Source of the DNA: an uncultured Candidatus Peribacteria bacterium
Lineage (GTDB): Bacteria; Patescibacteriota; Gracilibacteria; UBA1369
Direction of reading: 5' to 3'
Assembly: GCA_964346765.1 (NCBI GenBank)
Contig: CAYFWB010000001.1
Coordinates: 226,087 to 290,086 of the forward strand
Length of the DNA: 64,000 bases
The position numbers and the translations under genes were made by a program. How positions within the stretch are numbered: position 1 is the stretch's first letter; every line of letters starts with the position of its first letter. Under the pieces are notes generated by a model. It had not been told where the DNA came from and did no database searches. It saw only the letters and a program-made list of their open reading frames with translations. Below are positions 2 through 64,000 of this stretch, piece by piece.

Positions 2-1171
2 TTTCCTGTTCTGGATAATCTTGGTCGAGTGGTGGCTTTTGGTGGAAGAGCTCTGAGCAAGGATCAGGAACCCAAATATTTGAATTCACCTGAAAGCGTG
101 ATTTATCACAAAAGCAATATTCTTTACGGATTTTACGGAGCCAAACAAAAGATTAAAGAGAAAAGCGAAGTGGTGATTGTCGAAGGTTATTTTGATGTAA
201 TTGCTTCTCTGCAGGCGGGATTGATCAATACGGTCGCCCCTTGCGGCACGGCCCTGGCATCTAAACAACTTAGGTTATTAAAGCCGTTTGCCGATACGCT
301 GGTTTTGGCTTTTGATATGGATACAGCCGGACAAGAGGCGGCTAAAAGATCTTATGAGATTGCTCAAGAATTTGAATTCAATATTAAAGTTGCAATTATG
401 CCCGAAGGTAAAGATCCCGCCGAATACGCGAAGCAACACGGTACTGAATTGCTTAACGTGATTTCGAAAGCGCTACCTTACAGCGATTATATCTATAGGC
501 GTACTATGGAAGCTTATGGAACGGATACTCCGGCCGCGAAAAAAAGGATTCTTTTGGATTTGATGCCGCATTTGTTTTTGATGAAAAGTAATATAGAAAG
601 AGATACTTATGTGAGAAGATTGGCACTTGATTTGGATTTAAGGGAGGTACAAATTTATGATGAGATCAAGAGTTATAAGTTACCGGATTATCATCCGGCT
701 AAAAGTCATCGCGATGACAACGGTGCCGAATCGACATTAAAAGCGCAAAGCAGGACAGTTGAAGAGACTTTGCTTGGCTTGATTATACAATTTCCAAGGG
801 TGGGTAAAATGTACACGGACAGAATCGGAAAAAATTTCTTTACTGATGATTTAAAAGCTATTTACAAGGAATTTATTGATCAGTATAATAGCGACAGCCT
901 TAAGTCCGAAGAGGACTTTGTCAGTGGATTAGCGCATGAATTAAAGGAAAATGCTGCTTTGATCACTCTGTATATAGAAGAGAAATACGGAGAGATAACG
1001 GAAGAGTCGGCCGAAAAAGAAATAGCAGCGTTGATTGAGAATGTAAACAAATCCAGAACTGTCAGTAAAAGAAGAAAATTACAGAAACGTCTGGTGTCGG
1101 CCGAACAGGATGGTAATAAAGAATTGCAGAATGAGTTACTTATGGAGCTTAATAAATTATACGACAGTTAG
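2..1171 (+). CDS. dnaG: DNA primase DnaG, 5'-truncated by the window edge (TOPRIM plus C-terminal helicase-interaction region)
   Basis: The frame stays open from the window edge (FPVLDNLGRVVAFGGR...). It has the primase TOPRIM motifs (VVIVEGYFDV, AFDMDTAGQEAA). It lies directly upstream of rpoD, the classic dnaG-rpoD arrangement. Confidence 0.9.
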   Translation, partial: FPVLDNLGRVVAFGGRALSKDQEPKYLNSPESVIYHKSNILYGFYGAKQKIKEKSEVVIVEGYFDVIASLQAGLINTVAPCGTALASKQLRLLKPFADTLVLAFDMDTAGQEAAKRSYEIAQEFEFNIKVAIMPEGKDPAEYAKQHGTELLNVISKALPYSDYIYRRTMEAYGTDTPAAKKRILLDLMPHLFLMKSNIERDTYVRRLALDLDLREVQIYDEIKSYKLPDYHPAKSHRDDNGAESTLKAQSRTVEETLLGLIIQFPRVGKMYTDRIGKNFFTDDLKAIYKEFIDQYNSDSLKSEEDFVSGLAHELKENAALITLYIEEKYGEITEESAEKEIAALIENVNKSRTVSKRRKLQKRLVSAEQDGNKELQNELLMELNKLYDS

Positions 1172-40100: not shown

Positions 40101-40234
40101 ATCCTGTTGAAACGCCCGTGCAACAAACCGGCGCGGCCCAGCCAGATCAACAGCCGACAACGAATTCGCAGGTGATGCCCGGTGAAATTCCTTCATCCGG
40201 GGAAGAAATTAAGTATGAACCTCCACATGAATAG
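37136..40234 (+). CDS. VirB4/TrsE-family type IV secretion-like ATPase with ~330 aa low-complexity N-terminal and ~130 aa Q/T-rich C-terminal extensions
   Basis: CagE/TrbE/VirB-like segment (IAPSSMEIRYDSLRIEGMYAQSFYVYTYPRY...), Walker A FAKSGAGKSY and Walker B RRLLVIDEAW. Confidence 0.8.
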   Translation: MADDQKQNQTSVNVPAVQDNDAPAPDWLKNTKDLAIHEENKKVSNQNGAHVAQSESRPLQEKTKFSNQVQPMIEQKEEKKSVEDLTKKELPAWLQVAQGQSAKAGETALPKDGGSEDKTQNQKVEQAAVKSFSGTAAQTNQTGVQSVSQRGDTAFSEAVQTKAKAGVEDKAVDQQSKSVPVKTAGDISAVNQQKAVAAPSGLLETASNGNPKQSMIQTAPAENVVEPVESKQSVPAKKQPKVSESQQKNKKKEKKEEVAKKKKDLFESAKKIFVKSAENAKAAVEEGRTAGVPEKKSKKEAVRVTPVDKGKKGSKKKDAEVTAEEKQKLIEAEKIFQEGLTTIRDLIAPSSMEIRYDSLRIEGMYAQSFYVYTYPRYLNTNWLSPIVNFDVTMDIAQFIYPIDSSEIMKVLKKKVTQMQSSVRMRQQKGMVSDPALETALQDAEELRVQIQRGQEKFFQFGLYFTIYTSEEKKIDKVAKHLESLLGGKLILTKKAELQMEHAFNSTLPLCLDELEIRSNMNTSPLSSTFPFSSSDLTSDEGILYGLNRHNDSLIIFDRFSLENANSVVFAKSGAGKSYAVKLEILRSMMTGSDVIVIDPENEYEALSQTVGGSYLRVSLTSERRINPFDLPQPLEGEEEMPGDVLRSNIINLNGLLKIMLGGITPEEEAILDKALNDVYALKGITMKVVDPSSIPPPTMEDLQQILSTMEGATSMAQRLEKFTSGTYSGIFNKPTNIDLQSGLMVFSIRDLEDALRPIAMYIILNYIWSRVRSKLKRRLLVIDEAWTMMQYEDSAKFLFGLVKRSRKYFLGITTITQDVEDFIKSPYGKPVVTNSSTQLLLKQAPAAIDILAKIFNLTEGEKYMLLNSGVGQGLFFAGLKHVAIQIIASYTEDKIVTTNPEEILRSREIMEQYESSSFSNQQSVNNGSSTDNSTQPAASEQQVTQQPDTLQQGEAAGGVKQSVQEGTEQTAAPVSAGTQSADQTKNATYPVETPVQQTGAAQPDQQPTTNSQVMPGEIPSSGEEIKYEPPHE

Positions 40235-51767: not shown

Positions 51768-52220
51768 CTATTTTTCCCAAATAATTCCTTCACATCGCCC
51801 TTTAAGATAACCATGATGAATGAACTTGGAAGAACCGAGTTCCATAACACCTGTTTTGCCATAGAAACGACAAGCTTTACAGGCACTTTTATATTGCACT
51901 GTCTCAATTTTAGACTCACCGTTTTTTTCCTTGGTGTGATAGGAACAAACTTTCTCTTCCTCAAATGTGTCGCAGTCAAACACTATGCCGTCATCGTCAC
52001 GCTCGAAGTAGGCGGGGTCACAAGAAATAAGATTATTTGGAATAGAATCTGCGGTATCTTCTTTATTGTTTTCATTAACAGCCTTTTTGTCTAAATTGGA
52101 AAGGTTATTGTCCGGCTCACTCTTTTGGCTGCAACCCGAAATAAAAAAGGTCATTATTACTGACAATAATATTATAATCTTCTTTTTGTCTAAACTTTTT
52201 TTAATAGTTTTGTAATCCAT
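51768..52220 (-). CDS. putative lipoprotein, Cys-rich C-terminal domain (150 aa)
   Basis: Signal peptide with a lipobox-like FISGC. Confidence 0.55.
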   Translation of the reverse strand: MDYKTIKKSLDKKKIIILLSVIMTFFISGCSQKSEPDNNLSNLDKKAVNENNKEDTADSIPNNLISCDPAYFERDDDGIVFDCDTFEEEKVCSYHTKEKNGESKIETVQYKSACKACRFYGKTGVMELGSSKFIHHGYLKGRCEGIIWEK

Positions 52221-52273
52221 TACTCCGATTGGTGTTAGCCCCTCTTTGATGATGTTTTCCGAAGAAGTTAAAT

Positions 52274-52486
52274 TTAAGCCAACTCTTTAGTCCAATAATG
52301 AGTGAAATATAAAATAATTAATCCTATAAAAATTGAGATCCAAGAACTTAATTCATAATTATTTGGAAATAAATAAGTATCCATAATACCCCAAGCACCT
52401 CTCCAAAAAGCAACAACAGAAAATCCTATTAGAAGGGTGAATAGTGCTTGTTTAAATGGTTTCAATTTTTTAATTCTATGTAACAT
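52274..52486 (-). CDS. small two-TM membrane protein (70 aa), cassette ORF
   Basis: Two hydrophobic helices. It is flanked by GTTAGCCCC (52234-52242) and GGGGCTTAT (~52516-52524), a decayed cassette-end inverted repeat. Confidence 0.45.
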   Translation of the reverse strand: MLHRIKKLKPFKQALFTLLIGFSVVAFWRGAWGIMDTYLFPNNYELSSWISIFIGLIILYFTHYWTKELA

Positions 52487-52573
52487 AATATGATTAATTA
52501 TTTATAGTATTTTTTGGGGCTTATATTTAATTGTAATTAATGTCCAAGAGTATGCGATGTTGTGCTGATTTTA

Positions 52574-53152
52574 TTAAAACTTCAAAGTTGAAATAATATC
52601 TTTTAATGATTTGTTGTCTCTTTCTGTCCAATAAACCTTAAAAGCGACTATTTGGTTATTGTTTTTCGTGTAATACGCTGTTACATCAAACATATCGCTT
52701 ACTGTGATTTTAATGAAATCATTGTCGCCAATTTTTATCGTTTTGTATTTAATGCCGGTTTGTTCGGACATTTCCGATAAGGTTTCTCCCGGTAAGTCGA
52801 AATCGACAATAATTTGTTGATCTAATGTGTTGTTTGATGTTGTGGCTTTTATTTCTACTTCTGGTATTTGACATGTGTCGCAAGCTACAGGCGGATTTAT
52901 ATGTCTTTGATAACCTTCTGCTGTCCAAAGACCTTTTTCATCGGCTGTATATTCTATTGGATAGGTAAATGTAAATCCGTTACCTTGAAATATTTTTCCG
53001 GTTTCAACGACTGAAGCTGGTGTTTGATCTTCCGTTTTTTGAGTAATTTGTGGAGTCTTCACTGTTTTGTTTTGTTGCCAGAAGTAAACGCCACCTCCGA
53101 CAACGACTGCCGTTATAATGACGGCTACAATGATTTTCCATGTTTGGTTCAT
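52574..53152 (-). CDS. N-terminally anchored secreted protein (192 aa), cassette ORF
   Basis: Signal-anchor WKIIVAVIITAVVVGGGVYFWQ. The anchor and both flanks are paralogous to cassette 60515..61186. Confidence 0.6.
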   Translation of the reverse strand: MNQTWKIIVAVIITAVVVGGGVYFWQQNKTVKTPQITQKTEDQTPASVVETGKIFQGNGFTFTYPIEYTADEKGLWTAEGYQRHINPPVACDTCQIPEVEIKATTSNNTLDQQIIVDFDLPGETLSEMSEQTGIKYKTIKIGDNDFIKITVSDMFDVTAYYTKNNNQIVAFKVYWTERDNKSLKDIISTLKF

Positions 53153-53215
53153 ATAATTTTTAATTAAGAATTATTTGAATTATATATTAAGTCGCTTTTA
53201 AAGTAGCCCAATTTT

Positions 53216-53326
53216 AGCTAATTTTTGCGTGTAAACGAAGTTTTTTGTATTGGTATAATATGTCCGGAGGGCCACCAATGCAAAAATTTAGGATGAGCGA
53301 AGCGAACTGTTTATATGCTGTTAGTT
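53216..53326 (-). repeat. attC-like imperfect palindrome (partly decayed)
   Basis: AGCTAAT...GTTAGTT, left arm TTTTGCGTGTAAACGAAGTT, central hairpin TTTTTGTATTGGT/ACCAATGCAAAAA. Confidence 0.5.
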
Positions 53327-53396
53327 AGAAATTTTTTTTTAATCAAAATATTAGCGAAGATTTCTCCAGTATGAGAAAGCTTCTTTTTTTAAGGGA

Positions 53397-53657
53397 TTAC
53401 AATAATTTATTATATATCCAAGCAAATATTGTTGTTAGTATAAATCCATCAATAAATCCATAAATTGTACCTAACAAAACTCCAATCCAAGAGATAGAGT
53501 ATCCTAAAAATCCATATATACTAACAATCAAATTATTGTATTCTGGGAAAAACCCGTAAATTCCAAGTATTGTTGTAAAAGCAATACAGATTCCTGCTGT
53601 AATTCCTCCGGCTATTCCAAATTTAAATGGATTAATTTTTCCAAATTTTTCTGACAT
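53397..53657 (-). CDS. small three-TM membrane protein (86 aa), cassette ORF
   Basis: Gly/Ile-rich helices (GIAGGITAGICIAF..., GFIDGFILTTIFAWIY). Confidence 0.5.
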   Translation of the reverse strand: MSEKFGKINPFKFGIAGGITAGICIAFTTILGIYGFFPEYNNLIVSIYGFLGYSISWIGVLLGTIYGFIDGFILTTIFAWIYNKLL

Positions 53658-53768
53658 GGTTTTATTGGGTTAATTATTAAACTGAAAAAAATTTATCACA
53701 AGCTATGTTTGACTTGAAATAAATTGCTAAACGTCTAAAGAATAATAATAGAAATTGCTGGTTATTCC

Positions 53769-53863
53769 TGGTAACGTCCGTGCAACGTGTGAAGTTTGGC
53801 AGTGGTAAAATTTGTGACGAAGGAGCTTACCACTGCTAAATATGGACGGTGTAAGACGATTGT
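53769..53863 (-). repeat. attC-like imperfect palindrome (first of a tandem pair with no ORF between)
   Basis: TGGTAAC|GTCCGTG..., hairpin TTTGGCAGTGGTAA/TTACCACTGCTAAA. AACGTCC pairs with GGACGGTG. Confidence 0.5.
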
Positions 53864-53962
53864 GCCTAACGTCCCAGGAGTATGAGAGGTTGTCGTCGGG
53901 AACTTGCGACCAAAGGCAATTTGGATGGAGCCGAAGGAGGAATCTCATATTCCTTGTTATAT
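53864..53962 (-). repeat. attC-like imperfect palindrome
   Basis: GCCTAAC|GTCCCAGG...GGCAATTTGGATGG...CCTT|GTTATAT. The GTTATAT core overlaps the HAD stop codon. Confidence 0.55.
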
Positions 53963-54679
53963 ACAGTTCTTATTCTGGTGAGGGTACTGAAAAAACTGCA
54001 TTTCTTTTAACTCTCGTAAATCGGAACAACTTTTTTCATAGAAAAAATTTGACCGTTTTCGGTTTAACCAAATTCCCAGAAGACCTGCATCAGTTGCACC
54101 AATTGCATCTTTTTTCAAATTATCACCAATATAAATAACATTTTTAGATTCTACTTTAAACAATTCAGCACTTTTTTGAAAGAAAATTGGATTGGGTTTT
54201 GACATTCCTTCGGATTCTGCAGTGATTACAAATTTGAAATATTCAAAAATACCTGTCTTTTTCAATTTAAACTCTTGTTGTTTTTGAGCTCCATCTGAAA
54301 GAATACCTAATTCAATGTTTTGATGTTTTAAAAATTCTAAAGTTTCAATAACATCAGGATAAAGAGTCCAAGAGTTCTCATAATAACCAAGATACTTATT
54401 GAAATATTTAAAGGATTCATGTTCTGTCATCTTTTGGTTTTGGAAAATGTCTCGAATCCTTCGAATTTGTTGTTCCCTAAAAGTAATTTTCTGAGTTAAA
54501 AAATCCTTGATATGGTTTTCAGAAACTGTTTTCCAAAGAGTAACAAAAGTGCTTTCATCATAATTGGGTATAATAGAAGAAAACATAAAACCAAATTTTT
54601 CTGCTGCATCAATTTCTGCTTTTGAGTGGTTAACTAATGTATCATCTAAATCAAACAGTACTTTAATAATTTTCTCCAT
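53957..54679 (-). CDS. HAD-superfamily hydrolase, cassette ORF
   Basis: I trimmed this to MEKIIKVLFDLDDTLV (DxDxT motif I). It also has SDG (motif II region) and GDNLKKD (motif IV). The tracked TTG-initiated extension runs through the repeat. Confidence 0.8.
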   Translation of the reverse strand: MEKIIKVLFDLDDTLVNHSKAEIDAAEKFGFMFSSIIPNYDESTFVTLWKTVSENHIKDFLTQKITFREQQIRRIRDIFQNQKMTEHESFKYFNKYLGYYENSWTLYPDVIETLEFLKHQNIELGILSDGAQKQQEFKLKKTGIFEYFKFVITAESEGMSKPNPIFFQKSAELFKVESKNVIYIGDNLKKDAIGATDAGLLGIWLNRKRSNFFYEKSCSDLRELKEMQFFQYPHQNKNCI

Positions 54680-54691
54680 AATAAAAATTGT

Positions 54692-54817
54692 ACATAACGT
54701 TCCAGCATATGCGACGTTTGCCCTTGGTATAATTTGCGACCAGCGGGAGCTTGCCACGGGCAAATATGGACTAAGCGACGAGGTACGAGGGGCGTAGTCG
54801 TATACTGCGGATTGTAT
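54692..54817 (-). repeat. attC-like imperfect palindrome (right core degenerate)
   Basis: ACATAAC|GTTCCAGCATATGCGAC pairs with GTCGTATACTGCGG. Hairpin TTTGCCC/GGGCAAA and second hairpin GACTAAGC/GCGTAGTC. It ends in ATTGTAT instead of GTT.... Confidence 0.55.
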
Positions 54818-54832
54818 AATGTAATGAAAAAT

Positions 54833-55174
54833 TTATCCATTAAAAATTATTTGGGCTACTTTTTTGTGTAAGGAATTGGGAAAACTCCTTTTAACTTCAT
54901 AACGGTGGGGGAAGTAGTTTTTGTATTCACTTTTGCTACAAACTCGTAAAACTTCATTCTTGTAAGTGATAGCAAAACCAACTTTTCTGTATACTTTTTT
55001 ATATTTTTGTGAAAGTGAATTTTCCAATTTTTTTAATTGGATTTTTAATTTTATGGTTGGTCTTGTTTTTAGAACTACAACCAAATTTAAATGAGAGATT
55101 AAAGATTTTGCTTTTCCTGTAGCAACACTTCCATACAAATAAATGCCGTGAATCTTACTAAAAAATTTCAGCAA
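54833..55174 (-). CDS. nucleotidyltransferase-fold fragment resembling the N-domain of ANT/AadA-type enzymes, with catalytic Asp residues replaced
   Basis: IYLYGSVATGKAKSLISHLNLVVV aligns with the GS...(S)DxDL motif but reads HLN. Only 113 aa. Confidence 0.45.
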   Translation of the reverse strand: MLKFFSKIHGIYLYGSVATGKAKSLISHLNLVVVLKTRPTIKLKIQLKKLENSLSQKYKKVYRKVGFAITYKNEVLRVCSKSEYKNYFPHRYEVKRSFPNSLHKKVAQIIFNG

Positions 55175-55191
55175 TTAAGATTTTACATTTT

Positions 55192-55458
55192 TTACAATTC
55201 TTCTAATGCTTGAACTATTAATTGGTAATTTCGAGTTTTCTCCCTACCTTCTTCGTGTGCGTGTGGACCATTGCACCATTCTAATAACTCGTCTCTGGTT
55301 TCGCTTAGTGATGCTATTAGTTCTGGTGTAATTTCTTCTTCCCTAAATCTGTTACTAAAAGTTTTTTCTAAAGAATTTATATCACTGCGAGGTATTTCTT
55401 TTAAGAATTCTCCTAATTTCATATATATAAGGTTAATTATGTAAGTTAACGCTACCAT
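55192..55458 (-). CDS. hypothetical small protein (88 aa; alternative start at 55422), same cassette as 54833..55174
   Basis: Intact ORF 17 nt upstream of the NTase-like ORF, with no repeat element between them. Confidence 0.4.
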   Translation of the reverse strand: MVALTYIINLIYMKLGEFLKEIPRSDINSLEKTFSNRFREEEITPELIASLSETRDELLEWCNGPHAHEEGREKTRNYQLIVQALEEL

Positions 55459-55504
55459 AGCATTACTAAGAATTATGTCAAGTCCAGCTTAACTAAAATA
55501 TGGC

Positions 55505-55630
55505 GCACAACGTCCTAGACTTTGTGAAATTTGGTGGCGGTAAAATTTAGAGCGAAGCGACATACTTCCGCCAAATTTGGGTGAATGACTGAACGAAGTG
55601 AGGGAATGAACCGTATATACCTTGTTATGT
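55505..55630 (-). repeat. attC-like imperfect palindrome
   Basis: GCACAAC|GTCC...CCTT|GTTATGT, hairpin AAATTTGGTGGCGG/CCGCCAAATTT. A 37-nt block (55576-55612) is identical to 60445-60481. Confidence 0.6.
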
Positions 55631-55646
55631 ATTGGTCAATTTATTT

Positions 55647-56402
55647 TTATCTGTATTCAGGATTTGGATGATCGAATTTACATCCAGCTTCCCATTTTGA
55701 TCTTTGATTCCCATGGGGAGGAATACCTCCATTATTTTTTAGCATTCTTGCCATATGGAGAAGATTCCAAGTCATGAACGTAGTATTGCGTTGGGTAAAG
55801 TCATTTTGAGGACCGCCACTTCCTTCGTCTAAATACGAAAGTCCCGGTCCAGCTTCACCGATCCAGCCAGCATCAGCTTGCGGAGGTATAGTAAACCCCA
55901 GGTGTTGCAAAGAATAAAGCACTCCCATGCCAACATGTTTGATTCCATCTTCATTTCCCGTAACTATACAACCTCCTGCACGTCCATAATAAGCATACTG
56001 GCCGTGCTCATTAAGTTCACCCGATTGGCCATATAATCTTTCAATAACTCTTTGACATACCGATGATTTTTCTCCAAGCCATATAGGAGATCCTAGTATC
56101 AGGATATCACTTGCCATCACTTGTTTAAAAACTTTAGGCCAGTCGTCTTTTTGCCATCCGTCTTCAGTCATATCTGGCCAAACCCCGGAAGCTATATCTA
56201 AATCAACAGCACGAATTTCTTTGACGGAAACATTGTTTTTTTCCATTATAGCTTTTGATACAGCAATAAGCCCATCAGTGTGTGATTTTTCCGGCGTTTT
56301 TTTTAGAGTGCAATTGATAAATAACGCCTTGAGATCCGAGAAATCCCATTTAGAGGATACACACAACTCTTCTTGTTTTGGTGATAGTTTAGTCATATTC
56401 AT
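55647..56402 (-). CDS. flavodoxin-fold NAD(P)H-dependent FMN reductase-like oxidoreductase, cassette ORF
   Basis: LILGSPIWLGEKSSVCQRVIERL flavodoxin-like pattern. It is visibly GC-richer than its neighbours. Confidence 0.75.
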   Translation of the reverse strand: MNMTKLSPKQEELCVSSKWDFSDLKALFINCTLKKTPEKSHTDGLIAVSKAIMEKNNVSVKEIRAVDLDIASGVWPDMTEDGWQKDDWPKVFKQVMASDILILGSPIWLGEKSSVCQRVIERLYGQSGELNEHGQYAYYGRAGGCIVTGNEDGIKHVGMGVLYSLQHLGFTIPPQADAGWIGEAGPGLSYLDEGSGGPQNDFTQRNTTFMTWNLLHMARMLKNNGGIPPHGNQRSKWEAGCKFDHPNPEYR

Positions 56403-56439
56403 AGTTTAAAAAATAAATTGTATTATACATATCATTGTT

Positions 56440-57378
56440 TTAAAAAGTGGGGCTATCATACTTTACAGTTTTAGCTATTATCTGTTTTACTTCTACAGAA
56501 TCAGGATACCAGATCAAAGTATCTAAATCATGTTCAACAGAGTAGAGATCTAACCTCTTATCCAAATTTTCAAATTCAAAAAGTTCTGGATAAAATTCCT
56601 GAAACCAATCCAAAAGATTAGCGTAATCTTCTTTTTTTGCAAATTTTTCAAATTTTTCGGACATATACTTTTTCGGATACTCAACCATTCTTTTAATAAT
56701 ATCCAAAACGAAGTCCATTGAAGAAACTTCTGTCCTCTCAAAATCTAAAATGCCGACAATCTTTGTATCTTGAACTAGAATATTATCAAAGTGAGCATCC
56801 CAATATACTAGTGTTAGTTTTTGCTCCTTGAGAATATTATGATTGTCGTTAACAAAATTTTTGATGACTTTGATAAATTCAGAGGACAGAAGTTTTTTTT
56901 CTTCAATTTTCTTTAATGAGTTTTGAATTTGGTTGAGTATCTTGTCGTGCCAGTTGTCCGAAAAATTTACATCAAACTTTTGCAGAAATTCATCATATGG
57001 CGATTTGTTGATCACTTTGAGAATATTACAAAGCTGTTTGATGATGATTTTCCTCTGGTCGTTGTTCAATAAATGCCATTTTGAGTACAGATTATCGCCA
57101 TCAATCTTGGGGTAAATCATGAAAAATTTGTCATAAATACCCTTGGATTTATCAAAAACGCTGATTTTAGGAATAGGAATTTTATCTTTAAAAAAATTGT
57201 AGAAAAATACCTCAATTTCAAACTTTTCTTCATTAGTTATATCTTCACAAACTTTGAGAATATATTTATCGTTAATAATATAAACTTTATTTGTGAAGCC
57301 AATTTCAATTTTTTGAAAAGTTTTAACTTCTCCTAATTTATGTTCTTTGAAAATTTTTTCTACAGTTTTTTTTTCCAT
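56440..57378 (-). CDS. phosphotransferase enzyme family protein (APH/choline-kinase fold), cassette ORF
   Basis: Catalytic loop VYWDAHFDNILV (HxDxxxxN) and the metal-binding ILDFE motif. Very AT-rich. Confidence 0.8.
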   Translation of the reverse strand: MEKKTVEKIFKEHKLGEVKTFQKIEIGFTNKVYIINDKYILKVCEDITNEEKFEIEVFFYNFFKDKIPIPKISVFDKSKGIYDKFFMIYPKIDGDNLYSKWHLLNNDQRKIIIKQLCNILKVINKSPYDEFLQKFDVNFSDNWHDKILNQIQNSLKKIEEKKLLSSEFIKVIKNFVNDNHNILKEQKLTLVYWDAHFDNILVQDTKIVGILDFERTEVSSMDFVLDIIKRMVEYPKKYMSEKFEKFAKKEDYANLLDWFQEFYPELFEFENLDKRLDLYSVEHDLDTLIWYPDSVEVKQIIAKTVKYDSPTF

Positions 57379-57425
57379 ATAAATTGATAAGAGGTTAGAT
57401 TATATAAATTTTAGCCCCACTTTTT

Positions 57426-57478
57426 TCTATTGATAGTACATTGATTTTGGTGAGTAGCCACGAAGCGCTGTGTTGGGA
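57426..57478 (-). repeat. truncated attC-like element (right half only) abutting the IS110-family insertion
   Basis: GATTTTGGTGAGTAGCCACGAAGCGCTGT|GTTGGGA resembles the right halves of the other elements. The left RYYYAAC half is missing. Confidence 0.4.
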
Positions 57479-58659
57479 GTATAAGTCCCGTCGCATAACA
57501 TGTGGGCTCCTGAAATGTCTCAAAGAAGCGAATAGGCTAGTTGGGGTCGCATCCCCGAACTATATACGAACCTGCTTTTGACATGTCAAGGGGTCTTCGC
57601 AGCTACCACCTTTCTCTTTTTCTTCTCTCTTCTTTTTCTCTTTACACTTTATGCCCGATACAAGCTAAAAATCAAGCTCATGAAAAAATATATAGGTATT
57701 GATGTCTCCAAACGTGATTTTCACGTCTGTTTCAGTGAGAATGGAGCGGTTTCAAAATTTGAAAATTCTGTGGCTGGTATTCGTAATTTCCTTGATTATC
57801 TCAAGCAAAATCGTTTTTCCACCAAAAGCACGCTTATCGGTTTGGAATCAACAGGATCATATCATTTGCAACTTTCTTTTCTCGCAACAAAAGTGGGTTA
57901 TACGGTGAATGTTATCAATCCTTTAATCACTCGCAGGCAAAGCAAAAGTGTCGTTCGTAGCGTCAAAACGGACGCGCATGATTCCGTTCTCATTCGTCTT
58001 TGCGTTATTCAGGGCGTGGGTCATCCATTTCGTGATACCGCTGATTCTCTTGCCCTCAAGACTCTGGTTCGTCAAAGGGCGGGGCTTTCAATGTTCAGGT
58101 TACAGGCAAAATTGCGACAGGAAGAGGTTTGTTTACGAGAAAGCTATCTTGAAAATGACATTTCCGAAGTGAATAAAGAGCTTGTGGAATTTTTTGATGA
58201 AAAGATCCTGTTTCTGGATCGAAAAATCAGAAAATTCAATCCCGGATTACAAAAATTGTTGCAGTCAATTCCCGGGGTTGGTCCACAAACGGCTTCAACC
58301 TGCGTCGCGGAAATTGGCGATATCATGCGGTTTCCCCACGCAAAGGCTTTGACAGCCTATGTTGGGCTGGATTCGCGCGTGTATGAGAGCGGAACGAGTA
58401 TTCATGGCAAAGGATATATCTCCAAGCGTGGTAGCAAGATATTACGCACCCGTTTCTACAATGCCGCTTCTGTTGCCGTTCTACACGAAAATATATTCAG
58501 AGAGTTCTTTCTCAAAAAACGCTCGGAGGGAAAACCCTATCGCGTTGCCCTTTGCGCCGTGATGCACAAAATGGTGCACGTTGTTTTTGCAGTCTGGAAG
58601 CGTGTTTCACCTTTTATTAACGATGTATCTCAAAAAAGTTCTTGACGGGGATATCGCTA
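57475..58659 (+). mobile_element. IS110-family insertion sequence (approximate ends)
   Basis: Intact DEDD transposase and a ~200 nt structured non-coding leader. Subterminal inverted repeat AGTCCCGTC (57484-57492) / GACGGGGAT (58644-58652). It is flanked by GTTGG... on the left and GTTAGCT on the right, which are attC-like core sequences. Confidence 0.65.
57680..58645 (+). CDS. IS110-family (DEDD) transposase/recombinase
   Basis: I trimmed this to MKKYIGIDVSKRDF. It has LESTGSYH and KTDAHDS, plus the C-terminal Transposase_20 pattern (IPGVGPQTAS...YVGLDSRVYESGTS...ISKRGSK). Confidence 0.9.
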   Translation: MKKYIGIDVSKRDFHVCFSENGAVSKFENSVAGIRNFLDYLKQNRFSTKSTLIGLESTGSYHLQLSFLATKVGYTVNVINPLITRRQSKSVVRSVKTDAHDSVLIRLCVIQGVGHPFRDTADSLALKTLVRQRAGLSMFRLQAKLRQEEVCLRESYLENDISEVNKELVEFFDEKILFLDRKIRKFNPGLQKLLQSIPGVGPQTASTCVAEIGDIMRFPHAKALTAYVGLDSRVYESGTSIHGKGYISKRGSKILRTRFYNAASVAVLHENIFREFFLKKRSEGKPYRVALCAVMHKMVHVVFAVWKRVSPFINDVSQKSS

Positions 58660-59040
58660 GTTAGCTGAAGTTTGATCTATTTTAGATAAAAAGATTATAT
58701 TAAATACAATTGCTCCAAATGCTATTAACCCAACAAGGAAAGCAAATCCATAACCTACGCCGTGTCCTGGTTGACCTGGAAGTCCATTAGCTGAAATATT
58801 GTATATTTCTGCAAAAACCAAAAAGTACATGATCCAAGTCTGGCTTAAGTGCTTTTGTAGATTAGTTGATTCATTTTCTACGTTATTTATAAAGGTATTT
58901 GCTTTCCAGGCTGCGAATATTAATGTTGGGATGAAAATTAGAAATCCCATAAAGGGTATAATAGTAAAAATAATGAAACCTAATATTAGACCTATAAATA
59001 AGTAGATCCCGTAAATGATGGAATTTATATAATTTTTCAT
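58657..59040 (-). CDS. small polytopic membrane protein (127 aa), cassette ORF
   Basis: Four hydrophobic helices. The last sense codon AAC is the AAC of the cassette-end core (AGCTAAC). Confidence 0.5.
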   Translation of the reverse strand: MKNYINSIIYGIYLFIGLILGFIIFTIIPFMGFLIFIPTLIFAAWKANTFINNVENESTNLQKHLSQTWIMYFLVFAEIYNISANGLPGQPGHGVGYGFAFLVGLIAFGAIVFNIIFLSKIDQTSAN

Positions 59041-59066
59041 GTTGTGAGGGATTAAAATTAAATTTC

Positions 59067-59080
59067 AGATAACGTTTGCA
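59067..59080 (-). repeat. left stub of an attC-like element split by the IS4-like insertion
   Basis: AGATAAC|GTTTGCA. The element continues at 60408. Confidence 0.5.
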
Positions 59081-60407
59081 GCACTAGTGTTGCGTCAAAG
59101 CAAAAACTGAAATGAGTATTAAGCATACAATAAAGCAAAATGAGTTGTTTTGCAATTTTTCGATTTGAATGAAGGCTGGGATAATAAGAGTGTTTTTTAA
59201 TTAACTTACATATCCTTATGAATATCGATAGATACGTTTTTTTTCAGATTACTGATTTTATTTCAGTTTATGAATTCAATAGTTTTATCCAAAAATATCA
59301 TGGAAATAAAAAAATAAGAGAGCTCACTTGCCGCGATCAATTTCTATCGGTCATGTTCGCCCAACTTACAGGACTACAAAGTCTGAGAGGGATAGTTTTA
59401 TGCCTAAATGCACATGAATATCAGTTATATCACTTGGGTTTTCGTTCAAAAAAGTTTGTTCTTTCAACACTCTCACGAGCGAATCAATTTCGCGATTGGA
59501 GGATATGGTATGATTTTACGGAGCATCTTATTTTTAAGGCCAGAAAGCTATATATCAATGATAATGATTTTTCAATCGAACTCAAAAACTCGATTTATGC
59601 ATTGGATTCAACGGTTATTGATTTTTGTCTTGCAACATTCAAATGGGCTTATTTTGAACTTCAAAAATCAGCTGTTAAAGTCCGTACACAGCTTGATTTG
59701 AAAGGTAATATTCCTTCGTTTTTCTTCATAACTAAGGCTAAAGTTCATGATGTGAATTTTCTTGATCAGTTGGAATTTGAGAAGGACGCGATCTACATTA
59801 TGGATCGTTGATATTTCGATTTTGAGCGGCTTCATACTATTCATGCTCAAGGCGCGTTTTTTATTATCCGCTCCAAGGAAAGTTTATCGTTTCAACGGAT
59901 ATATTCTCATGCGGTTGAGAAAAATACGGGTTTACGGTGCGATCAAACGATTAAATTGAAACATTTTTACGCGCACAAACGGTATCCGGAAAACCTGCGT
60001 CGTATCAAATATTACGACCCTGTGTCCGATACGCATTATGTTTATCTTACAAACAATTTTGAGATTTCCGCGCAAACAGTAGCCGATCTTTACAGGCATC
60101 GCTGGCAGATTGAATTTTTTTTCAAATGGATGAAGCAGTATCTCAAAATTCAAGTTTTTTGGGGTTACTCATTCAACGCGGTGAAGACGCAAATCTGCAT
60201 TGCAATTGCAACGTTTTTGCTTGTGGCGATCATGAAAAAGGAACTCAAAATTAAGCGCGATCTCTACGAAATTCTACAAATCTTATTGGTCTCTCAATTT
60301 GAGAAAACCGCTTTAGCAAGCCTTTTGAGTCAGGCAACATCACAGAAACCGAATTCAGGTATTCAAGAACGCCTTCCCTTAGCCATTGTTTAATGCAACA
60401 CTAGTGC
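59081..60407 (+). mobile_element. IS4-family-like insertion sequence (~1.33 kb) inserted in an attC-like element
   Basis: 13-bp terminal inverted repeats GCACTAGTGTTGC (59081-59093) / GCAACACTAGTGC (60395-60407). A flanking direct repeat GTTTGC (59074-59079 and 60408-60413) is the candidate target duplication. Confidence 0.75.
59218..60393 (+). pseudogene. IS4-family DDE transposase (DUF4372-like N-terminus plus DDE_Tnp_1-like core) with a single in-frame TGA at 59809-59811
   Basis: One reading frame throughout. D (IYALDST), D (YIMDR*YFDF, where the stop replaces Gly of DRGY) and E (YRHRWQIEFFFKWMK) are all present. Confidence 0.8.
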
Positions 60408-60499
60408 GTTTGCCGATATGAGAAGTTGCGATCGAAGGGAGCAATTTGGGTGAATGACTGAACGAAGTGAGGGAATGAACCTCATAGTCTCTGTTGTCT
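60408..60499 (-). repeat. attC-like element, right part (after the IS4-like insertion)
   Basis: GTTTGCCGATATGAGAAGTTGCGATCGAAGGGAGCAATTTGGG...CTCT|GTTGTCT. Confidence 0.55.
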
Positions 60500-60514
60500 G
60501 ATGTTGCGCTGATC

Positions 60515-61186
60515 TTAAAATCCCAGTTCTGCTTCACATTCTTTTTGTTCGGCCTTGCCTTTTTGTACTTGATAGTCAGGAACAGTATATGGCTTTAATG
60601 TATTTGGATTTTCTACGTCTAAATAACCAAAATTATCCCAATCTGCCCAAATTGAAAAGCATGGGCCAGGTGAATTATCAATAAGGTCGTACATGACGAT
60701 GAGTTTTGATCCTTCGATTCCCAGAGTTCTTAAAATCCGATTTTCATGCTCTTCATAAAGTTTTGATAATTCACCGGTTTTAATGTTGTAAGAATAGATC
60801 TTGTTCGTGCTTTTCATGTCTGGCCATTCTCCTGTTACATCTCCACTGGTTGAGACGAAAATTACATTGTTATCGGATGGAGACTCTGGAGCATGGAAAC
60901 TTTCCATGATTTCATCTGTTTTTGTTTTAATATCGGATCTGAACGATTCCCATTGTGGACTATCATAGCTGTAACCCTGTTCGATTGTTGGCGTGACTTT
61001 TTTCGTCTCAACCACTTCTTCGGGCTCAGTGGTTTGGTCAGATTGGGTGTCTGCAACTTCTTCCGTTGGAGTTTGTACAGTGATTTTTGTGCTTTGCCAC
61101 CAATACATGCCGCCTCCAACTACGATTGCAGTAATGACTACTGTTAAGATGATTGGCCATATACTGTTCCGGTTCTGTTCGTTCAT
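60515..61186 (-). CDS. N-terminally anchored secreted protein (223 aa), cassette ORF
   Basis: Signal-anchor IWPIILTVVITAIVVGGGMYWWQ. Paralogous anchor and flanks to 52574..53152. Confidence 0.6.
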   Translation of the reverse strand: MNEQNRNSIWPIILTVVITAIVVGGGMYWWQSTKITVQTPTEEVADTQSDQTTEPEEVVETKKVTPTIEQGYSYDSPQWESFRSDIKTKTDEIMESFHAPESPSDNNVIFVSTSGDVTGEWPDMKSTNKIYSYNIKTGELSKLYEEHENRILRTLGIEGSKLIVMYDLIDNSPGPCFSIWADWDNFGYLDVENPNTLKPYTVPDYQVQKGKAEQKECEAELGF

Positions 61187-61262
61187 AGTTTTATTTGTTA
61201 AATGAATAAATTTAATGAATTAGAATATTTACGATTTCAAGTATACAGATTAGCGCAATTTT

Positions 61263-61362
61263 AGACAACGTTTGCGACTAAGCGAAGTTTTGTGGCGTAG
61301 CGAAGGCAAATATGGGTGGAGGTCCGCTGTGGCGGACCGTAACCAGATATGCCGTGTTAGGC
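61263..61362 (-). repeat. attC-like imperfect palindrome
   Basis: AGACAAC|GTTTGCGACTAAGCGAAGTT...GGCAAATATGGG, hairpin GGTCCGC-TGTG-GCGGACC, then ...CCGT|GTTAGGC. Confidence 0.6.
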
Positions 61363-61375
61363 GAAGTCTCTGACA

Positions 61376-62350
61376 TTATTTATTATTTCTTAAAAAGAAC
61401 GCACAAGCATCTCCTTGATTCTTTAGGTTTAATTTTTTTGCTTTTTGTTTGAATACTGTAATTTCTGTATTTGAGAAAATTGAATTTGATGGATCTACTC
61501 CATATGAACGAGGATCTTTTAAAGGTATATTTTTGAGATATTGTTCACTTCCCCAAAATTGAAAATCAGTTGAGTTATACACAATTTCTTCTAAATTAAG
61601 ATTTACCTTTTCTGCTAGTAAGGTAATGCTTTTGATCGAATGGAGAAAGAAATGTCTTGGTGCATCAAGTTGAACCCAATTCTCTCTATAATGTTCCCAA
61701 GCATAAGAAGAGACAGTCGGGACTATAATTAAACAAATTCCTTTTTTGTTAAGTAATCTTGAAACAGACCAAAGAGTCTCTGTAGGGTCTGGGATATGTT
61801 CAAAAGAATGATGAAACATTATTAGATCCCATTTACCATCAAGTTTGTGAATTGACTTTTTTAAGATTTTTAATCCATTTTTGTATTCAATATCGTCCTT
61901 GATATAAGGATCAATGCCTAATAAATTTCTAAAACCAATTTCTTTGTAGCTATGGAGAAGAGAGCCGCTTCCGCATCCAACATCTAATATGGTAATATTT
62001 TTTGATAGATGAACCCGTGATGCCCATTGGTGGCTTTCTAGAGGAAAAAAAGTGTAAATTAATTTACCAAGAGCTCCTTTTTTTTGGATAGCATAGCTGT
62101 TTCTTAAATTTTTAATAAATCTCTTCATTGGATTTTTTGATCCTTCTAGGGAAGGCAAGAGAAAGCTGTAGTAATTCGAAGGATAGTATTTTGACATATC
62201 TTCGGGGAAATCAGCAATTTGAAGGCATCCACATTTCGAACACTGGAAATAAGTGAATTTATCTCTAAAACCAAACATCATTTCTTTCACTTCATATACC
62301 TTATTCCCATTCGAGTTATTACAAATTTTACATTTCATATTTTTCTCCAT
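61376..62350 (-). CDS. class I SAM-dependent methyltransferase with an N-terminal zinc-ribbon, cassette ORF
   Basis: CKICNN...CSKCGC zinc ribbon and SAM motif I (ILDVGCGSGSL). Confidence 0.8.
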   Translation of the reverse strand: MEKNMKCKICNNSNGNKVYEVKEMMFGFRDKFTYFQCSKCGCLQIADFPEDMSKYYPSNYYSFLLPSLEGSKNPMKRFIKNLRNSYAIQKKGALGKLIYTFFPLESHQWASRVHLSKNITILDVGCGSGSLLHSYKEIGFRNLLGIDPYIKDDIEYKNGLKILKKSIHKLDGKWDLIMFHHSFEHIPDPTETLWSVSRLLNKKGICLIIVPTVSSYAWEHYRENWVQLDAPRHFFLHSIKSITLLAEKVNLNLEEIVYNSTDFQFWGSEQYLKNIPLKDPRSYGVDPSNSIFSNTEITVFKQKAKKLNLKNQGDACAFFLRNNK

Positions 62351-62378
62351 TATTTTTAATTTTTATGTCAGAGATTTC

Positions 62379-62500
62379 GCCTAACGTCCATGAATAACTG
62401 AAGTTTGGTGGCGGTATAATTTGAAGCGGAGCGACATACCTCCGCCAAATTTGGGAGTAGTGAACCGAAGGCGAACGGAACCGCAAAGTCTTTGTTATGT
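62379..62500 (-). repeat. attC-like imperfect palindrome
   Basis: GCCTAAC|GTCCATG..., hairpin AAGTTTGGTGGCGG/CCGCCAAATTT, then ...CTTT|GTTATGT. Confidence 0.6.
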
Positions 62501-62509
62501 GATGTTAAG

Positions 62510-63217
62510 TTATGACACGGGAGTGCTGATTTTTTCGGTAATTATCTTAATAATTTTTTCATTGTTTTCTTTTTGTCTAGGATTATTTGTTTGATTATTG
62601 ATATATCGTTCATAAAATATTACCATCTCTGAATAATTAGTGTCATTTTTTAGTTTTTTCAAAATTTCATATTTGTTGAGTGTTGTTATGCCTTGTATCC
62701 ACAAAAAATTTCTTATTATTTCACCAATATATAAATTTTTTTGAAGAATATTTTTAGATTTTTTATGCTTTTCTAATAACAGATTGATTTTATCGACATA
62801 TTCTTTTTTTGAAGGAGTAGCCAATTTTAATTTTGATACTACATCATCGCCAAAAATTAAAATGTTATTTTGCTTAAGATCTTCAAAAAAATAGGTGAAT
62901 ATTTTTAGTTTTGAATTTTTATATGAACCTTCTATCTCCCAAGGCATATCAATAATTTTTTCAAAATGAGAAGTCTTTAATTTTGAAAAAACGGAATTCA
63001 GTTTTTTTGATAATTCTGTACTAATTATAGATGCATTTTTTTTAGTTATGTCATTATCAAAAATAATTAGTACATCAATGTCGCTTATTCCTAAAACGAA
63101 ATCTCCACGAGCAAGACTTCCCACAATATAGACAGACTTTATGAATTGTCCGTTTATGTTAGACTTATTGTTATTAAAAAAATTATTAATTTTAGCAATT
63201 ATTTGATCCTTGTTCAT
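62510..63217 (-). CDS. nucleotidyltransferase-domain protein (GS-x9-SDIDxL), cassette ORF
   Basis: VYIVGSLARGDFVLGISDIDVLIIF polymerase-beta-type NTase motif plus a helical C-terminal domain. Confidence 0.75.
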   Translation of the reverse strand: MNKDQIIAKINNFFNNNKSNINGQFIKSVYIVGSLARGDFVLGISDIDVLIIFDNDITKKNASIISTELSKKLNSVFSKLKTSHFEKIIDMPWEIEGSYKNSKLKIFTYFFEDLKQNNILIFGDDVVSKLKLATPSKKEYVDKINLLLEKHKKSKNILQKNLYIGEIIRNFLWIQGITTLNKYEILKKLKNDTNYSEMVIFYERYINNQTNNPRQKENNEKIIKIITEKISTPVS

Positions 63218-63266
63218 GAAAATATTATTAAGGTTTCAAAAGGAGGTGGTGTCATTACTTAATTTC

Positions 63267-63380
63267 ACATAACGTTCGCGACTATGCGAAGTTGCACGGG
63301 TGTATAATAGCCGAAAGCGAAAACCCGTGCAATTTGGGAGAGCGAACGGAGCGATAGCGGAATGAGTGAACCAGTTATTC
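63267..63380 (-). repeat. attC-like imperfect palindrome
   Basis: ACATAAC|GTTCGCGACTATGCGAAGTT, hairpin GCACGGGT/ACCCGTGC, AATTTGGG, then ...ACCA|GTTATTC. Confidence 0.55.
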
Positions 63381-63486
63381 ATTTTTTTGATAAGTAGCAC
63401 GCTGTCATCCTTAATAGCCAAAAGCATACACTCCAATGTGTTTATGTTGTTTCATAGGTTTTTATTTAGTTAGCCCAGCTAATTTT

Positions 63487-63583
63487 GCCTAACGTTCCAG
63501 TATATCTGATGTTTGCCGTAGTGAAACGGAGGCAAATATGGGTCGAGCGACGGCAGGAGCGAGCCAGATATACGCTGTTGTCC
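63487..63583 (-). repeat. attC-like imperfect palindrome
   Basis: GCCTAAC|GTTCCAGTATATCTGA pairs with CCAGATATACGCTG (2-nt bulge). Hairpin TTTGCC/GGCAAA, then ...|GTTGTCC. Confidence 0.6.
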
Positions 63584-63689
63584 GACCCGAGCGGAACGTA
63601 GTGGAGCGAGAGTGCAATGAGGCAAGTCCGTAAGGATAGCGAAGGACGTAGCGTACATTTTTTATCTTTCTTTTTTCTCCATTAATTTA

Positions 63690-64000
63690 TCAACGCAAAG
63701 TCCAGCCACCATCTACTACCAATACTTGTCCGGTAATGTAATTAGATTTATTGGAAGCTAAAAAAACCGTTGCTTGTGCAATATCATCAGGGGTGCCCAT
63801 TTTTTTCCATGGAATGGCAGCTATGAATCCCTTTTTAGCCTCATCTGTTAGGTTTTTTGTTACTCCTGGTGTTTCAATGGCACCTGGTGCGACCGCGTTC
63901 ACATTTATTTTTTTGTCTGCAAGTTCTAAAGCAAGTGCCCTGCTCATCCCATTTACCCCGCCTTTTGAAGCGCAATAATGAACCAACCCTTCAAATCCTA
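63690..64000 (-). CDS. short-chain dehydrogenase/reductase (FabG-like), 5' part beyond the window edge
   Basis: The YxxxK catalytic motif (HYCASKGG) and PGAIETP are present. The frame stays open to position 64000, so the tracked TTG start is probably internal. Confidence 0.85.
   Translation of the reverse strand, partial: GFEGLVHYCASKGGVNGMSRALALELADKKINVNAVAPGAIETPGVTKNLTDEAKKGFIAAIPWKKMGTPDDIAQATVFLASNKSNYITGQVLVVDGGWTLR

Follow-up and report, generated by a model that had tools for sequence, protein, structure and literature searches.

A gene-cassette array of integron type in a candidate phyla radiation chromosome, and the short tyrosine recombinase linked to its relatives

Sedentary chromosomal integrons, such as the Vibrio superintegron and those of Xanthomonas and Pseudomonas, carry long one-directional arrays of short, mostly unknown open reading frames (ORFs), each followed by an attC site, an imperfect palindrome of ~57 to 141 nt with an R'' core (RYYYAAC) and an R' core (GTTRRRY). 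The bottom strand of these sites is the one recombined by integron integrases, and the canonical integrase, IntI, has ~320 to 340 aa and an IntI-specific insertion that is held necessary for integron recombination. This insertion is treated as defining and essential for integron integrases, and tools of the IntegronFinder type use it to separate complete integrons from orphan arrays. We analyzed a 64,000-nt stretch of bacterial DNA (contig CAYFWB010000001.1, positions 226,087 to 290,086; hereafter the window) and read its positions 52234 to 64000, with a probability of about 80%, as the distal two thirds of a chromosomal integron-type cassette array in a host of the candidate phyla radiation (CPR), with a short-recombinase platform upstream. 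Most likely, the array represents an integron variant not described before. That it belongs to the canonical integron family is unproven, and we do not file it there; an integrase bearing the insertion was found in no relative.

The locus resembles sedentary chromosomal integrons in its long one-directional array of short, mostly unknown ORFs, in its family-like attC sites with RYYYAAC/GTTRRRY cores, bottom-strand folding and hybrid sites of the kind expected from a G|TT crossover, and in its uneven cassette GC content, insertion sequences (ISs) and degraded distal end; its relatives further share with them a divergent recombinase gene and an attI-like site. It differs in its CPR host, in a conserved inner stem and 20- to 39-nt bulge that appear to take the place of single extrahelical bases, and in the relatives' recombinase, which has ~270 aa without the insertion and falls short of the TIGR02249 cutoff.

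Archaeal integrons were described by Ghaly et al. 2022 (PMC9668308), who required the IntI-specific domain and reported 539 attC sites and only 6 IntIs in 75 genomes. The present arrays are like those archaeal integrons and attC-site clusters without an integron integrase (CALINs) in occurring in uncultivated lineages and metagenome bins, with cassettes common to several domains, and are set apart, by description, by a linked enzyme without the IntI-specific domain. Smyshlyaev et al. 2021 (PMC8138268) assigned the Xer-related recombinases found in candidate phyla to a group named 'Cand', for which they suggested a housekeeping role. The sequence-only reading of this DNA that preceded our analysis knew of no characterized integron in a CPR genome, and a search of the literature outside subscription likewise brought up no account of integrons in CPR lineages. 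A groundwater genome catalogue lists Patescibacteria, in its source data for Figure 5A, under plasmids and phages and not among the phyla named for complete integrons called by IntegronFinder, which is suggestive only.

We identified a single family of attC-like sites, with 10 members in the window and 6 beyond it, each of 84 to 126 nt, bounded by RYYYAAC and GTTRRRY and located 10 to 110 nt past ORF stop codons. The sequence-only reading had listed 11 related palindromes; 10 of these aligned as one family with a mean column identity of 56% and with all the quoted heptamers present, and the other (57426-57478) proved to be the end of an IS110-family element. An alignment of 14 sites from the window and its extension, again as one family, gave the plus-strand consensus RYYYAAC-GTYCnnG-nATATnnG-AAGTTTG...loop...CAAATWTGGG, a GC-rich bulge of 20 to 39 nt, and GAACC-nnATATnC-nnT-GTTRRRY, in which GAAGTTTG...CAAATWTGGG is a conserved inner stem. 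With respect to the cassette ORFs, the plus strand is the bottom strand.

In a structure drawn by hand, an R box of AAC/GTT is followed by an unpaired spacer, then by 11 pairs of L-box helix and 8 pairs of inner helix. Pairing was found in 82.5% of its cells, against 30% to 45% when partners were slid by 1 to 3 columns, and 34 cells were compensatory, against 16 in shuffles. Each of the 9 sites tested folded more stably as plus strand than as minus strand. In 13 of the 14 sites, moreover, 1 pair of the inner helix is G-U, which would be A-C on the other strand. The R box, spacer, and L box that the sequence-only reading had suggested looking for were thus present; as to the extrahelical bases it also named, the alignment has no conserved single-base bulge, and the 20- to 39-nt bulge lies on the R''/L'' arm, the arm bearing extrahelical bases in canonical sites.

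The sites are confined to the array. Scans of the window with a family pattern and a shorter pattern gave 4 and 5 matches, respectively, on one strand and all within 54.7 to 63.6 kb, against shuffle expectations of 0.00 and 0.01. A covariance model (R1) built from 14 array sites matched only 53216-63583, on a single strand, and had no match in the other 52 kb of the window, which hold gyrA, gyrB, secDF, prfA, and other core genes. Rfam returned nothing in the array in a gathering-threshold scan of the window or an E-value scan of 51.5 to 64 kb. Intergenic repeats of the repetitive extragenic palindrome (REP) or miniature inverted-repeat transposable element (MITE) type, lying by chance between short genes, would also appear as intergenic imperfect palindromes of ~100 nt that break assemblies. 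The sequence-only reading had proposed a check for such dispersal, and the elements have no copy in the adjoining 52 kb of core genome and keep a single orientation throughout. Moreover, the flank complementarity described below spans ORFs rather than single elements, and the elements travel with particular ORFs in other genomes and cluster beside one recombinase family, so that we regard such repeats as an extremely improbable explanation.

All ORFs from 52.2 kb that are backed by gene callers or Pfam lie on the minus strand and have 70 to 324 aa, with only the transposases of 2 ISs excepted, and the short minus-strand ORFs and compositional jumps reported from the sequence were both borne out. 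The GC content of cassette ORFs ranges from 24% (62510-63217) to 41% (55647-56402), with 29% for 56440-57378; the core genes of the window have 38% to 43% and the repeats 37% to 54%. In order along the window, the features are as follows.

51768-52220: first non-array ORF, directly next to the last site remnant.
52234-52240, minus strand: last site remnant, GGCTAAC on the minus strand, a weak call from sequence only with no model match; distal boundary of the array.
52274-52486, minus strand: cassette ORF for a small membrane protein of 70 aa (44.6 bits with Pfam Fuseless).
52530-52565, minus strand: collapsed degenerate site, AATTAAT...GTTGTGC, interior lost (repeat family D4 and sequence; no model match).
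52574-53152, minus strand: cassette ORF, 192 aa, with an N-terminal membrane anchor (ORF calls, sequence).
53216-53326, minus strand: attC-like site a16, with a degenerate R' (AAT for AAC on the plus strand; alignment; R1 72.9 bits, training member).
53397-53657, minus strand: cassette ORF for a holin-like protein of 86 aa (54.7 bits with NF037947, short of the cutoff of 70).
53769-53863, minus strand: attC-like site a15 (alignment; R1 58.1 bits).
53864-53962, minus strand: attC-like site a14, GCCTAAC...GTTATAT on the plus strand (alignment; R1 62 bits).
53957-54679, minus strand: cassette ORF, haloacid dehalogenase (HAD)-family hydrolase, 240 aa as called in assemblies.
54692-54817, minus strand: attC-like site a13 (alignment; R1 84.8 bits).
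54833-55458, minus strand: 2-ORF cassette, 88 aa (55192-55458) and 113 aa (54833-55174).
55505-55630, minus strand: attC-like site a12 (alignment; R1 95.4 bits).
55647-57378, minus strand: FMN reductase-like ORF (55647-56402) and APH-family kinase ORF (56440-57378).
57427-58663, plus strand: IS110-family element (NF033542, 195 bits).
58657-59040, minus strand: cassette ORF, 127 aa, membrane protein, with its stop codon in the IS junction.
59067-59080, minus strand: R'-side end of site a10, cut by the IS4-like insertion.
59081-60407, plus strand: IS4-like element.
60408-60499, minus strand: main part of site a10 (R1 match 60401-60499, E = 5e-4, outside the training set).
60515-61186, minus strand: cassette ORF, 223 aa, membrane-anchored, with no family match.
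61263-61362, minus strand: attC-like site a9 (alignment; R1 56.3 bits).
61376-62350, minus strand: cassette ORF, S-adenosylmethionine (SAM)-dependent methyltransferase, 324 aa.
62379-62500, minus strand: attC-like site a8 (alignment; R1 105.7 bits).
62510-63217, minus strand: cassette ORF, nucleotidyltransferase-fold protein, 235 aa, 24% GC.
63267-63390, minus strand: attC-like site a7, 94.6% identical to a4 beyond the window, with a degenerate R''.
63391-63486, minus strand: body of a 220-bp cassette (63273-63492) with no credible ORF.
63487-63583, minus strand: attC-like site a6, of the short-chain dehydrogenase/reductase (SDR) cassette.
63584-64000, minus strand: 3' part of the SDR cassette, comprising the ORF (246 aa whole, start beyond 64000) and a GC-rich spacer (63584-63689).

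Site a7 had been delimited as 63267-63380; it is a family member, as stated, and homology with its near-twin a4 extends it to ~63390. Sites a15 and a14 stand head to tail (53769-53962) with nothing between them and therefore form an empty cassette that consists of a site only. The FMN reductase-like and kinase ORFs differ by 12 GC points and have no full site between them. In their 37-nt junction (56403-39), a cassette-start flank of 26 nt survives, with 81% complementarity to the flank that precedes the next R'' (inverted repeat I15), and 55647-57378 is probably 2 cassettes fused by loss of a site. The 113-aa ORF 54833-55174 has a weak nucleotidyltransferase-fold match, and it and its 88-aa partner might be a toxin-antitoxin pair. 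By eye only, the N-terminal anchor and 3' flank of the ORF 52574-53152 resemble those of the 223-aa ORF 60515-61186. Within the array, only sites and IS copies repeat, with the near-identical site pairs a3/a6 (92%) and a4/a7 (95%); we rejected 63273-63492 as a deletion derivative of a 100-aa cassette, the 2 having sites alone in common.

The flanks of the cassettes record how the sites were put together. A crossover at G|TT of R' would leave the bases after R' to the neighboring cassette, and the partner of an R''-side flank would then be expected across the ORF, which tells cassettes from plain repeats. Over 24 positions beyond the AAC/GTT anchor, we compared the R''-side flank with the flank after R' across the ORF, and 5 of 13 cassettes scored 17 to 19 complementary positions. 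Non-cognate flank pairs (n = 212) had a mean of 7.3 (SD 2.5) and a maximum of 16, and the R'' and R' flanks of the same physical site had a mean of 7.0. Among the high-scoring cassettes, the flanks of the methyltransferase ORF (61356-61376 with 62365-62385, inverted repeat I21) are 95% complementary over 21 nt, and those of the ORF 62510-63217 (62494-62518 with 63249-63273, inverted repeat I8) 88% over 25 nt. Flanks pair across the ORF, and therefore each array site is a hybrid of 2 cassettes, as in integrons. Judged from the letters, this pairing fits a crossover at G|TT of R', and cassettes start with TTRRRY followed by (G/A)AAAT.

Cassettes of this array also occur elsewhere. The SDR cassette and its site recur in a Magasanikbacteria genome, with 80% protein and 76% DNA identity; the R''-side half of a6 is 100% identical over ~65 nt to the site of the Magasanikbacteria cassette, and the site upstream of the SDR cassette is homologous too. 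The protein of a RibD_C cassette beyond the window (112-828 of the extension, L001) has relatives of 74% to 92% identity across phyla and domains, named from Uhrbacteria, SAR202, Labilibaculum, Moranbacteria, Nanoarchaeota, Woesearchaeota, Lokiarchaeota, and Planctomycetota, and this cassette looks like one that circulates among them. Several cassettes carry GC-rich stretches of 40 to 100 nt with CGCTCC/TCGCTC-like repeats just upstream of R'' (window 63584-63689; L001 840-890, 4640-4695, and 2280-2315). In the RibD_C cassette, such a stretch parts R'' from its flank pairing with the cassette start, and the SDR spacer at 63584-63689 is kept in the Magasanikbacteria genome.

Related arrays were found in public data, where contigs were read as windows of at most 8 kb (genome scan) to ~20 kb. 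A genome scan with the family pattern, with one genome per species, gave at least 120 stretches, and among the 120 listed, 54 (~45%) were from CPR groups by name and 16 from archaea. The CPR groups among the matches listed include Peregrinibacteria, Gracilibacteria, Uhrbacteria, Magasanikbacteria, Kerfeldbacteria, Saccharibacteria, and others, and the remaining matches listed include Omnitrophota, Ignavibacteria, Spirochaetes, and unclassified bins; the pattern also matches bins named Woesearchaeota, Aenigmatarchaeota, Methanosarcinales, Bathyarchaeota, and Thermoplasmata. R1 had at least 334 matches in 135 public loci, in co-oriented arrays, with 277 sites in the 120 listed genome loci, where a locus as a rule has several sites on a single strand, and 57 sites in 15 of 50 metagenome loci sharing the exact inner-stem 23-mer. 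In the Peregrinibacteria contig JACPMA010000006.1 (L095, L066), sites extend from ~16.4 to 32.2 kb, as judged from the stretches read on either side of 24 to 32 kb, and a recombinase gene stands at the head.

A tyrosine recombinase gene lies at the array end faced by the cassette 5' ends in 21 of 21 loci that carry it with sites; most other related loci fetched were too short to show the array head. The search seed was an IntI1 sequence, which served as a lead only, and a hidden Markov model built from the first matches confirmed one family. Relative to the cassettes, the gene is divergent at 17 loci, among them all those from CPR, and has the same orientation at 4 (L013, L021, L044, and L073). 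The sequence-only reading had the cassettes run from right to left and expected the platform, if present, beyond 64000, and the minus-strand ORFs of the window together with the position of the gene in relatives agree with both. The array-linked recombinases have ~270 to 298 aa. In a reverse search, a profile of 8 CPR members found at least 7871 proteins, which PGAP names 'site-specific tyrosine recombinase/integron integrase' and JGI names XerD. Four members on long contigs were picked blind to their context, and sites as expected were found near 3 of the 4 (4 sites, 1 site, and 1 site in the expected place and orientation, and none near the last).

Of 12 CPR loci inspected, most have an attI-like ATTTC-RYYYAAC-TCGTTTnTATrCGAA in the interval that separates the recombinase gene from the first cassette, and in several CPR loci 2 direct repeats, TATACGAAnTnAATGTATAAT, follow its core. 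An exact search for the core found it in 6 of the 12 loci and in 20 fetched loci overall. The layout of motifs on the recombinase side is the one to be expected of an attI. The attI-like regions include L192 7868-7990, L191 7880-7990, L193 7870-7990, and L185 9883-9990; in L191 to L193 and other loci, the direct repeats end in TGTATAAT, which is also like an extended -10 promoter. The core further occurs at contig edges from Woesearchaeota (L015) and Thermoplasmatales (L114) bins.

The sequence-only reading had called the locus a chromosomal integron array or CALIN and had proposed a search for a recombinase with the IntI-specific insertion. A cassette array with attC-type sites was indeed found, but canonical integron membership as written was not supported, and the insertion occurs in no related array that carries a recombinase. 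If the array were a canonical integron, a standard IntI of ~320 aa with the insertion would stand unseen past the contig end or elsewhere in the genome, and the short enzymes of the relatives would be irrelevant. The classical RYYYAAC...GTTRRRY cores, the size range, and the bottom-strand folding bias all suit this, the integrase of this genome is unseen, and canonical IntIs are known from a few archaeal genomes with similar arrays (PMC9668308). Against it, the insertion is present in none of the 12 recombinases aligned, nor in that of L182, and these include 2 genomes of Peregrinibacteria, the lineage of the window. Further, the family has at least 7871 members, of which the best 120 have 266 to 293 aa, most of them 270 to 273 aa and nearly all 266 to 276 aa. 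In the L066 protein, only 25 residues align with residues 173-240 of IntI4 (VchIntIA, 2a3v). We consider a canonical integron unlikely.

Several observations weigh against our own reading of an integron-type array with a short-recombinase platform. In 12 of 12 recombinases aligned to IntI1, ~40 residues around the IntI-specific insertion are absent, and 9 full-length proteins score 195 to 233 bits, in 2 stretches, against the TIGR02249 integron integrase model, for which the cutoff is 265; the L006 fragment scores 107.5. In the L box, the 14-site alignment shows no single extrahelical base that is conserved, and the L arms of 5 sites (a4, a7, a8, a9, and a12) lack pairing inside their own site. 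R1 is self-trained and matches the array by construction, and the taxonomy of many matches, which are metagenome bins, may be wrong. Lastly, no recombinase was found on the contig, in the window or its extension to the contig end, and an exact search of the window and L001 did not find the attI-like core, so both would exist in this genome by analogy with its relatives.

The short enzymes could alternatively be a housekeeping Xer of the 'Cand' group that resolves chromosome dimers, with cassettes exploiting it as integrative mobile elements exploiting Xer (IMEX) and pdif modules do. The family is very large, its members have Xer-like length, and the source databases give it the names quoted above. 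Among solved relatives, XerA (142 bits with 5hxy and 140 with 4a8e) is about level with IntI4 (137 bits), and E. coli XerD follows with 90 bits. The 9 full-length proteins score 207 to 247 bits with NF040815 (XerA / 'integron integrase'; cutoff 220) and 160 to 198 bits with the XerC and XerD models, and such proteins have been suggested to stand in for Xer (Smyshlyaev et al., PMC8138268). Thus, in length, architecture, and NF040815 scores around the cutoff, the recombinase is like archaeal XerA, single-recombinase Xer systems, and the 'Cand' group. Unlike Xer, which acts on 28-bp double-stranded dif sites at the terminus, it stands at the head of arrays of ~100-nt hairpin sites, beside an attI-like site with direct repeats. 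Long hairpin sites in one-directional arrays with the recombinase fixed at the head beside an attI-like site are traits of integrons rather than of dif modules, and the 28-bp double-stranded sites at dif that mark pdif and IMEX elements were not found, the sites here being ~100-nt hairpins that all share an orientation. A position at dif or the terminus is disfavored by one related platform, which stands 6 kb from dnaA, and the array of the window lies near gyrB and gyrA without a GC-skew switch in the window. Such Xer-driven modules, which we hold to be very unlikely, differ from the reading we favor solely in the second job of the enzyme.

Sequence comparison places the host among the CPR, in the Peregrinibacteria/Gracilibacteria lineage. 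Its GyrB is 76% to 81% identical to proteins named from Patescibacteria, Peregrinibacteria, and Gracilibacteria, and therefore the CPR assignment, already proposed for this chromosome, holds. The remainder of the window is ordinary chromosome with gyrA, gyrB, secDF, priA, glmS, prfA, and prmC. Flanked by gyrA and a C-terminal processing protease, in what is otherwise core chromosome, lies a VirB4-like conjugal-transfer ATPase of the CD1110 family (37136-40234; 363.7 bits, above the cutoff).

The window corresponds to positions 61114-125113 of the JGI contig Ga0153774_1000020 (130,430 bp), and beyond 64000 the array goes on for 5.3 kb up to the contig end, with 6 further sites and cassettes encoding SDR, 148-aa, 100-aa, Rce1-like plus 127-aa, and RibD_C proteins. 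The array thus measures at least 17 kb in total. The contig ends inside another site, a0, which, although cut, is still matched by the site model (E = 2e-6, outside the training set), and the integrase of this genome is out of reach because of this. Four independent assemblies of the population (JGI, 2 ENA, and Logan) all break within the array, at the IS110-family element or inside a0, and the site-type repeat at a0 blocks assembly toward the array head. The ends in a0 upstream of RibD_C (L001 1-49; L196, L197) fall within ~20 nt of one another. A metagenome scan with the site-specific 23-mer gave 50 loci, of which none was from the window's sample, and did not extend the contig.

With the head out of reach, the array might be an orphan or CALIN, a fossil in a genome that no longer encodes a working recombinase. 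This would suit the lack of an integrase on a contig with at least 2 sites, the degraded or collapsed distal sites (52530-52565, 56403-39, and a16 with its AAT), and the 2 ISs that disrupt sites. The sequence-only reading had taken its most degraded sites, at 52 to 53.3 kb, for the distal end, and the collapsed site 52530-52565 and the degenerate a16 agree with a decayed distal end there. The proximal sites are intact, however, with site pairs 92% to 95% identical, and 1 site half is 100% identical to one in another CPR class, the accompanying ORFs being 24% different. Further, the relatives assembled across the array head, 21 loci, all bear the recombinase there, and in this population assemblies break before the head. 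We therefore judge an orphan array to be improbable, to much the same degree as a canonical integron.

The 2 ISs of the window lie within or next to sites. The IS110-family element (57427-58663) encodes an RNA-guided transposase and lies directly after the ...AGCTAAC of the 127-aa cassette, and a second copy beyond the window (L001 2498-3561), with a 176-bp internal deletion, lies directly after ACATAAC. The stretch 57426-57478, earlier taken as a truncated site, was rejected as such, being the non-coding tip of the IS110-family element and identical in the second copy except for 2 nt. The tip (57427-57490) resembles half a site, and this likeness may be target mimicry or may guide the bridge RNA. 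Tetu and Holmes are said to have described, in 2008, an IS1111-attC group of IS110-family elements that inserts into attC sites. The 2 copies here, each directly after an RYYYAAC heptamer, are like that group by position alone, the transposase matching the general IS110 model. The IS4-like element (59081-60407) encodes its transposase in 2 frames (DUF4372, then DDE_Tnp_1) and has 13-bp inverted ends, GCACTAGTGTTGC, and a GCAAAC target duplication. Its removal in silico restored the family spacing of a10, in keeping with the earlier view of 59067-59080 and 60408-60499 as a single site split by an IS. An ENA assembly from a different sample (L002) carries this insertion as well.

In the integron-type reading, the bottom strand of a site would fold into a hairpin, and a tyrosine recombinase would bind the R and L boxes and cut at AA|C = G|TT on the top strand. 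Cassettes would exit in circular form and be inserted at an attI next to the recombinase gene, at the array head. Older cassettes would drift toward the distal end (52 to 53 kb), where their sites would decay or collapse. The platform would lie upstream, beyond the contig end, and we infer from related CPR arrays that its recombinase would have ~270 aa, be IntI/XerA-like without the insertion, and use a conserved attI. Candidate polarity signals for an enzyme without the insertion are the large bulge and the conserved inner stem. Of this scheme, the sequences show the folded structure of the sites and its strand bias, the hybrid sites and their restriction to the array, and, in relatives, the linkage with the recombinase; we infer the rest, including catalysis by the short enzyme and that it occurs in this genome.

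Taken more broadly, the related arrays may represent a large undescribed integron class with an insertion-less integrase of ~270 aa, its own attI, and attC sites that have an inner stem and large bulge for single extrahelical bases, a class common in CPR and seemingly present also in DPANN and other archaea, Omnitrophota, Ignavibacteria, and other phyla. We regard this wider proposal as evenly balanced between being right and wrong. Such platforms could be the state before the insertion arose or could result from its secondary loss. They would fail a filter for an IntI with the additional domain, which could explain many orphan arrays in metagenome bins. CPR genomes typically have only ~1 Mb, a general figure rather than that of this genome, and an array of at least 17 kb would take up well over 1% of such a genome. 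If a recombinase without the insertion does run cassette arrays, the definition of integrons and the surveys built on it would miss a large part of integron diversity, and the step from Xer-type enzymes to integron integrases would become testable with living intermediates. CPR bacteria would then own a built-in gene-capture system, with cassettes exchanged across phyla and perhaps across domains.

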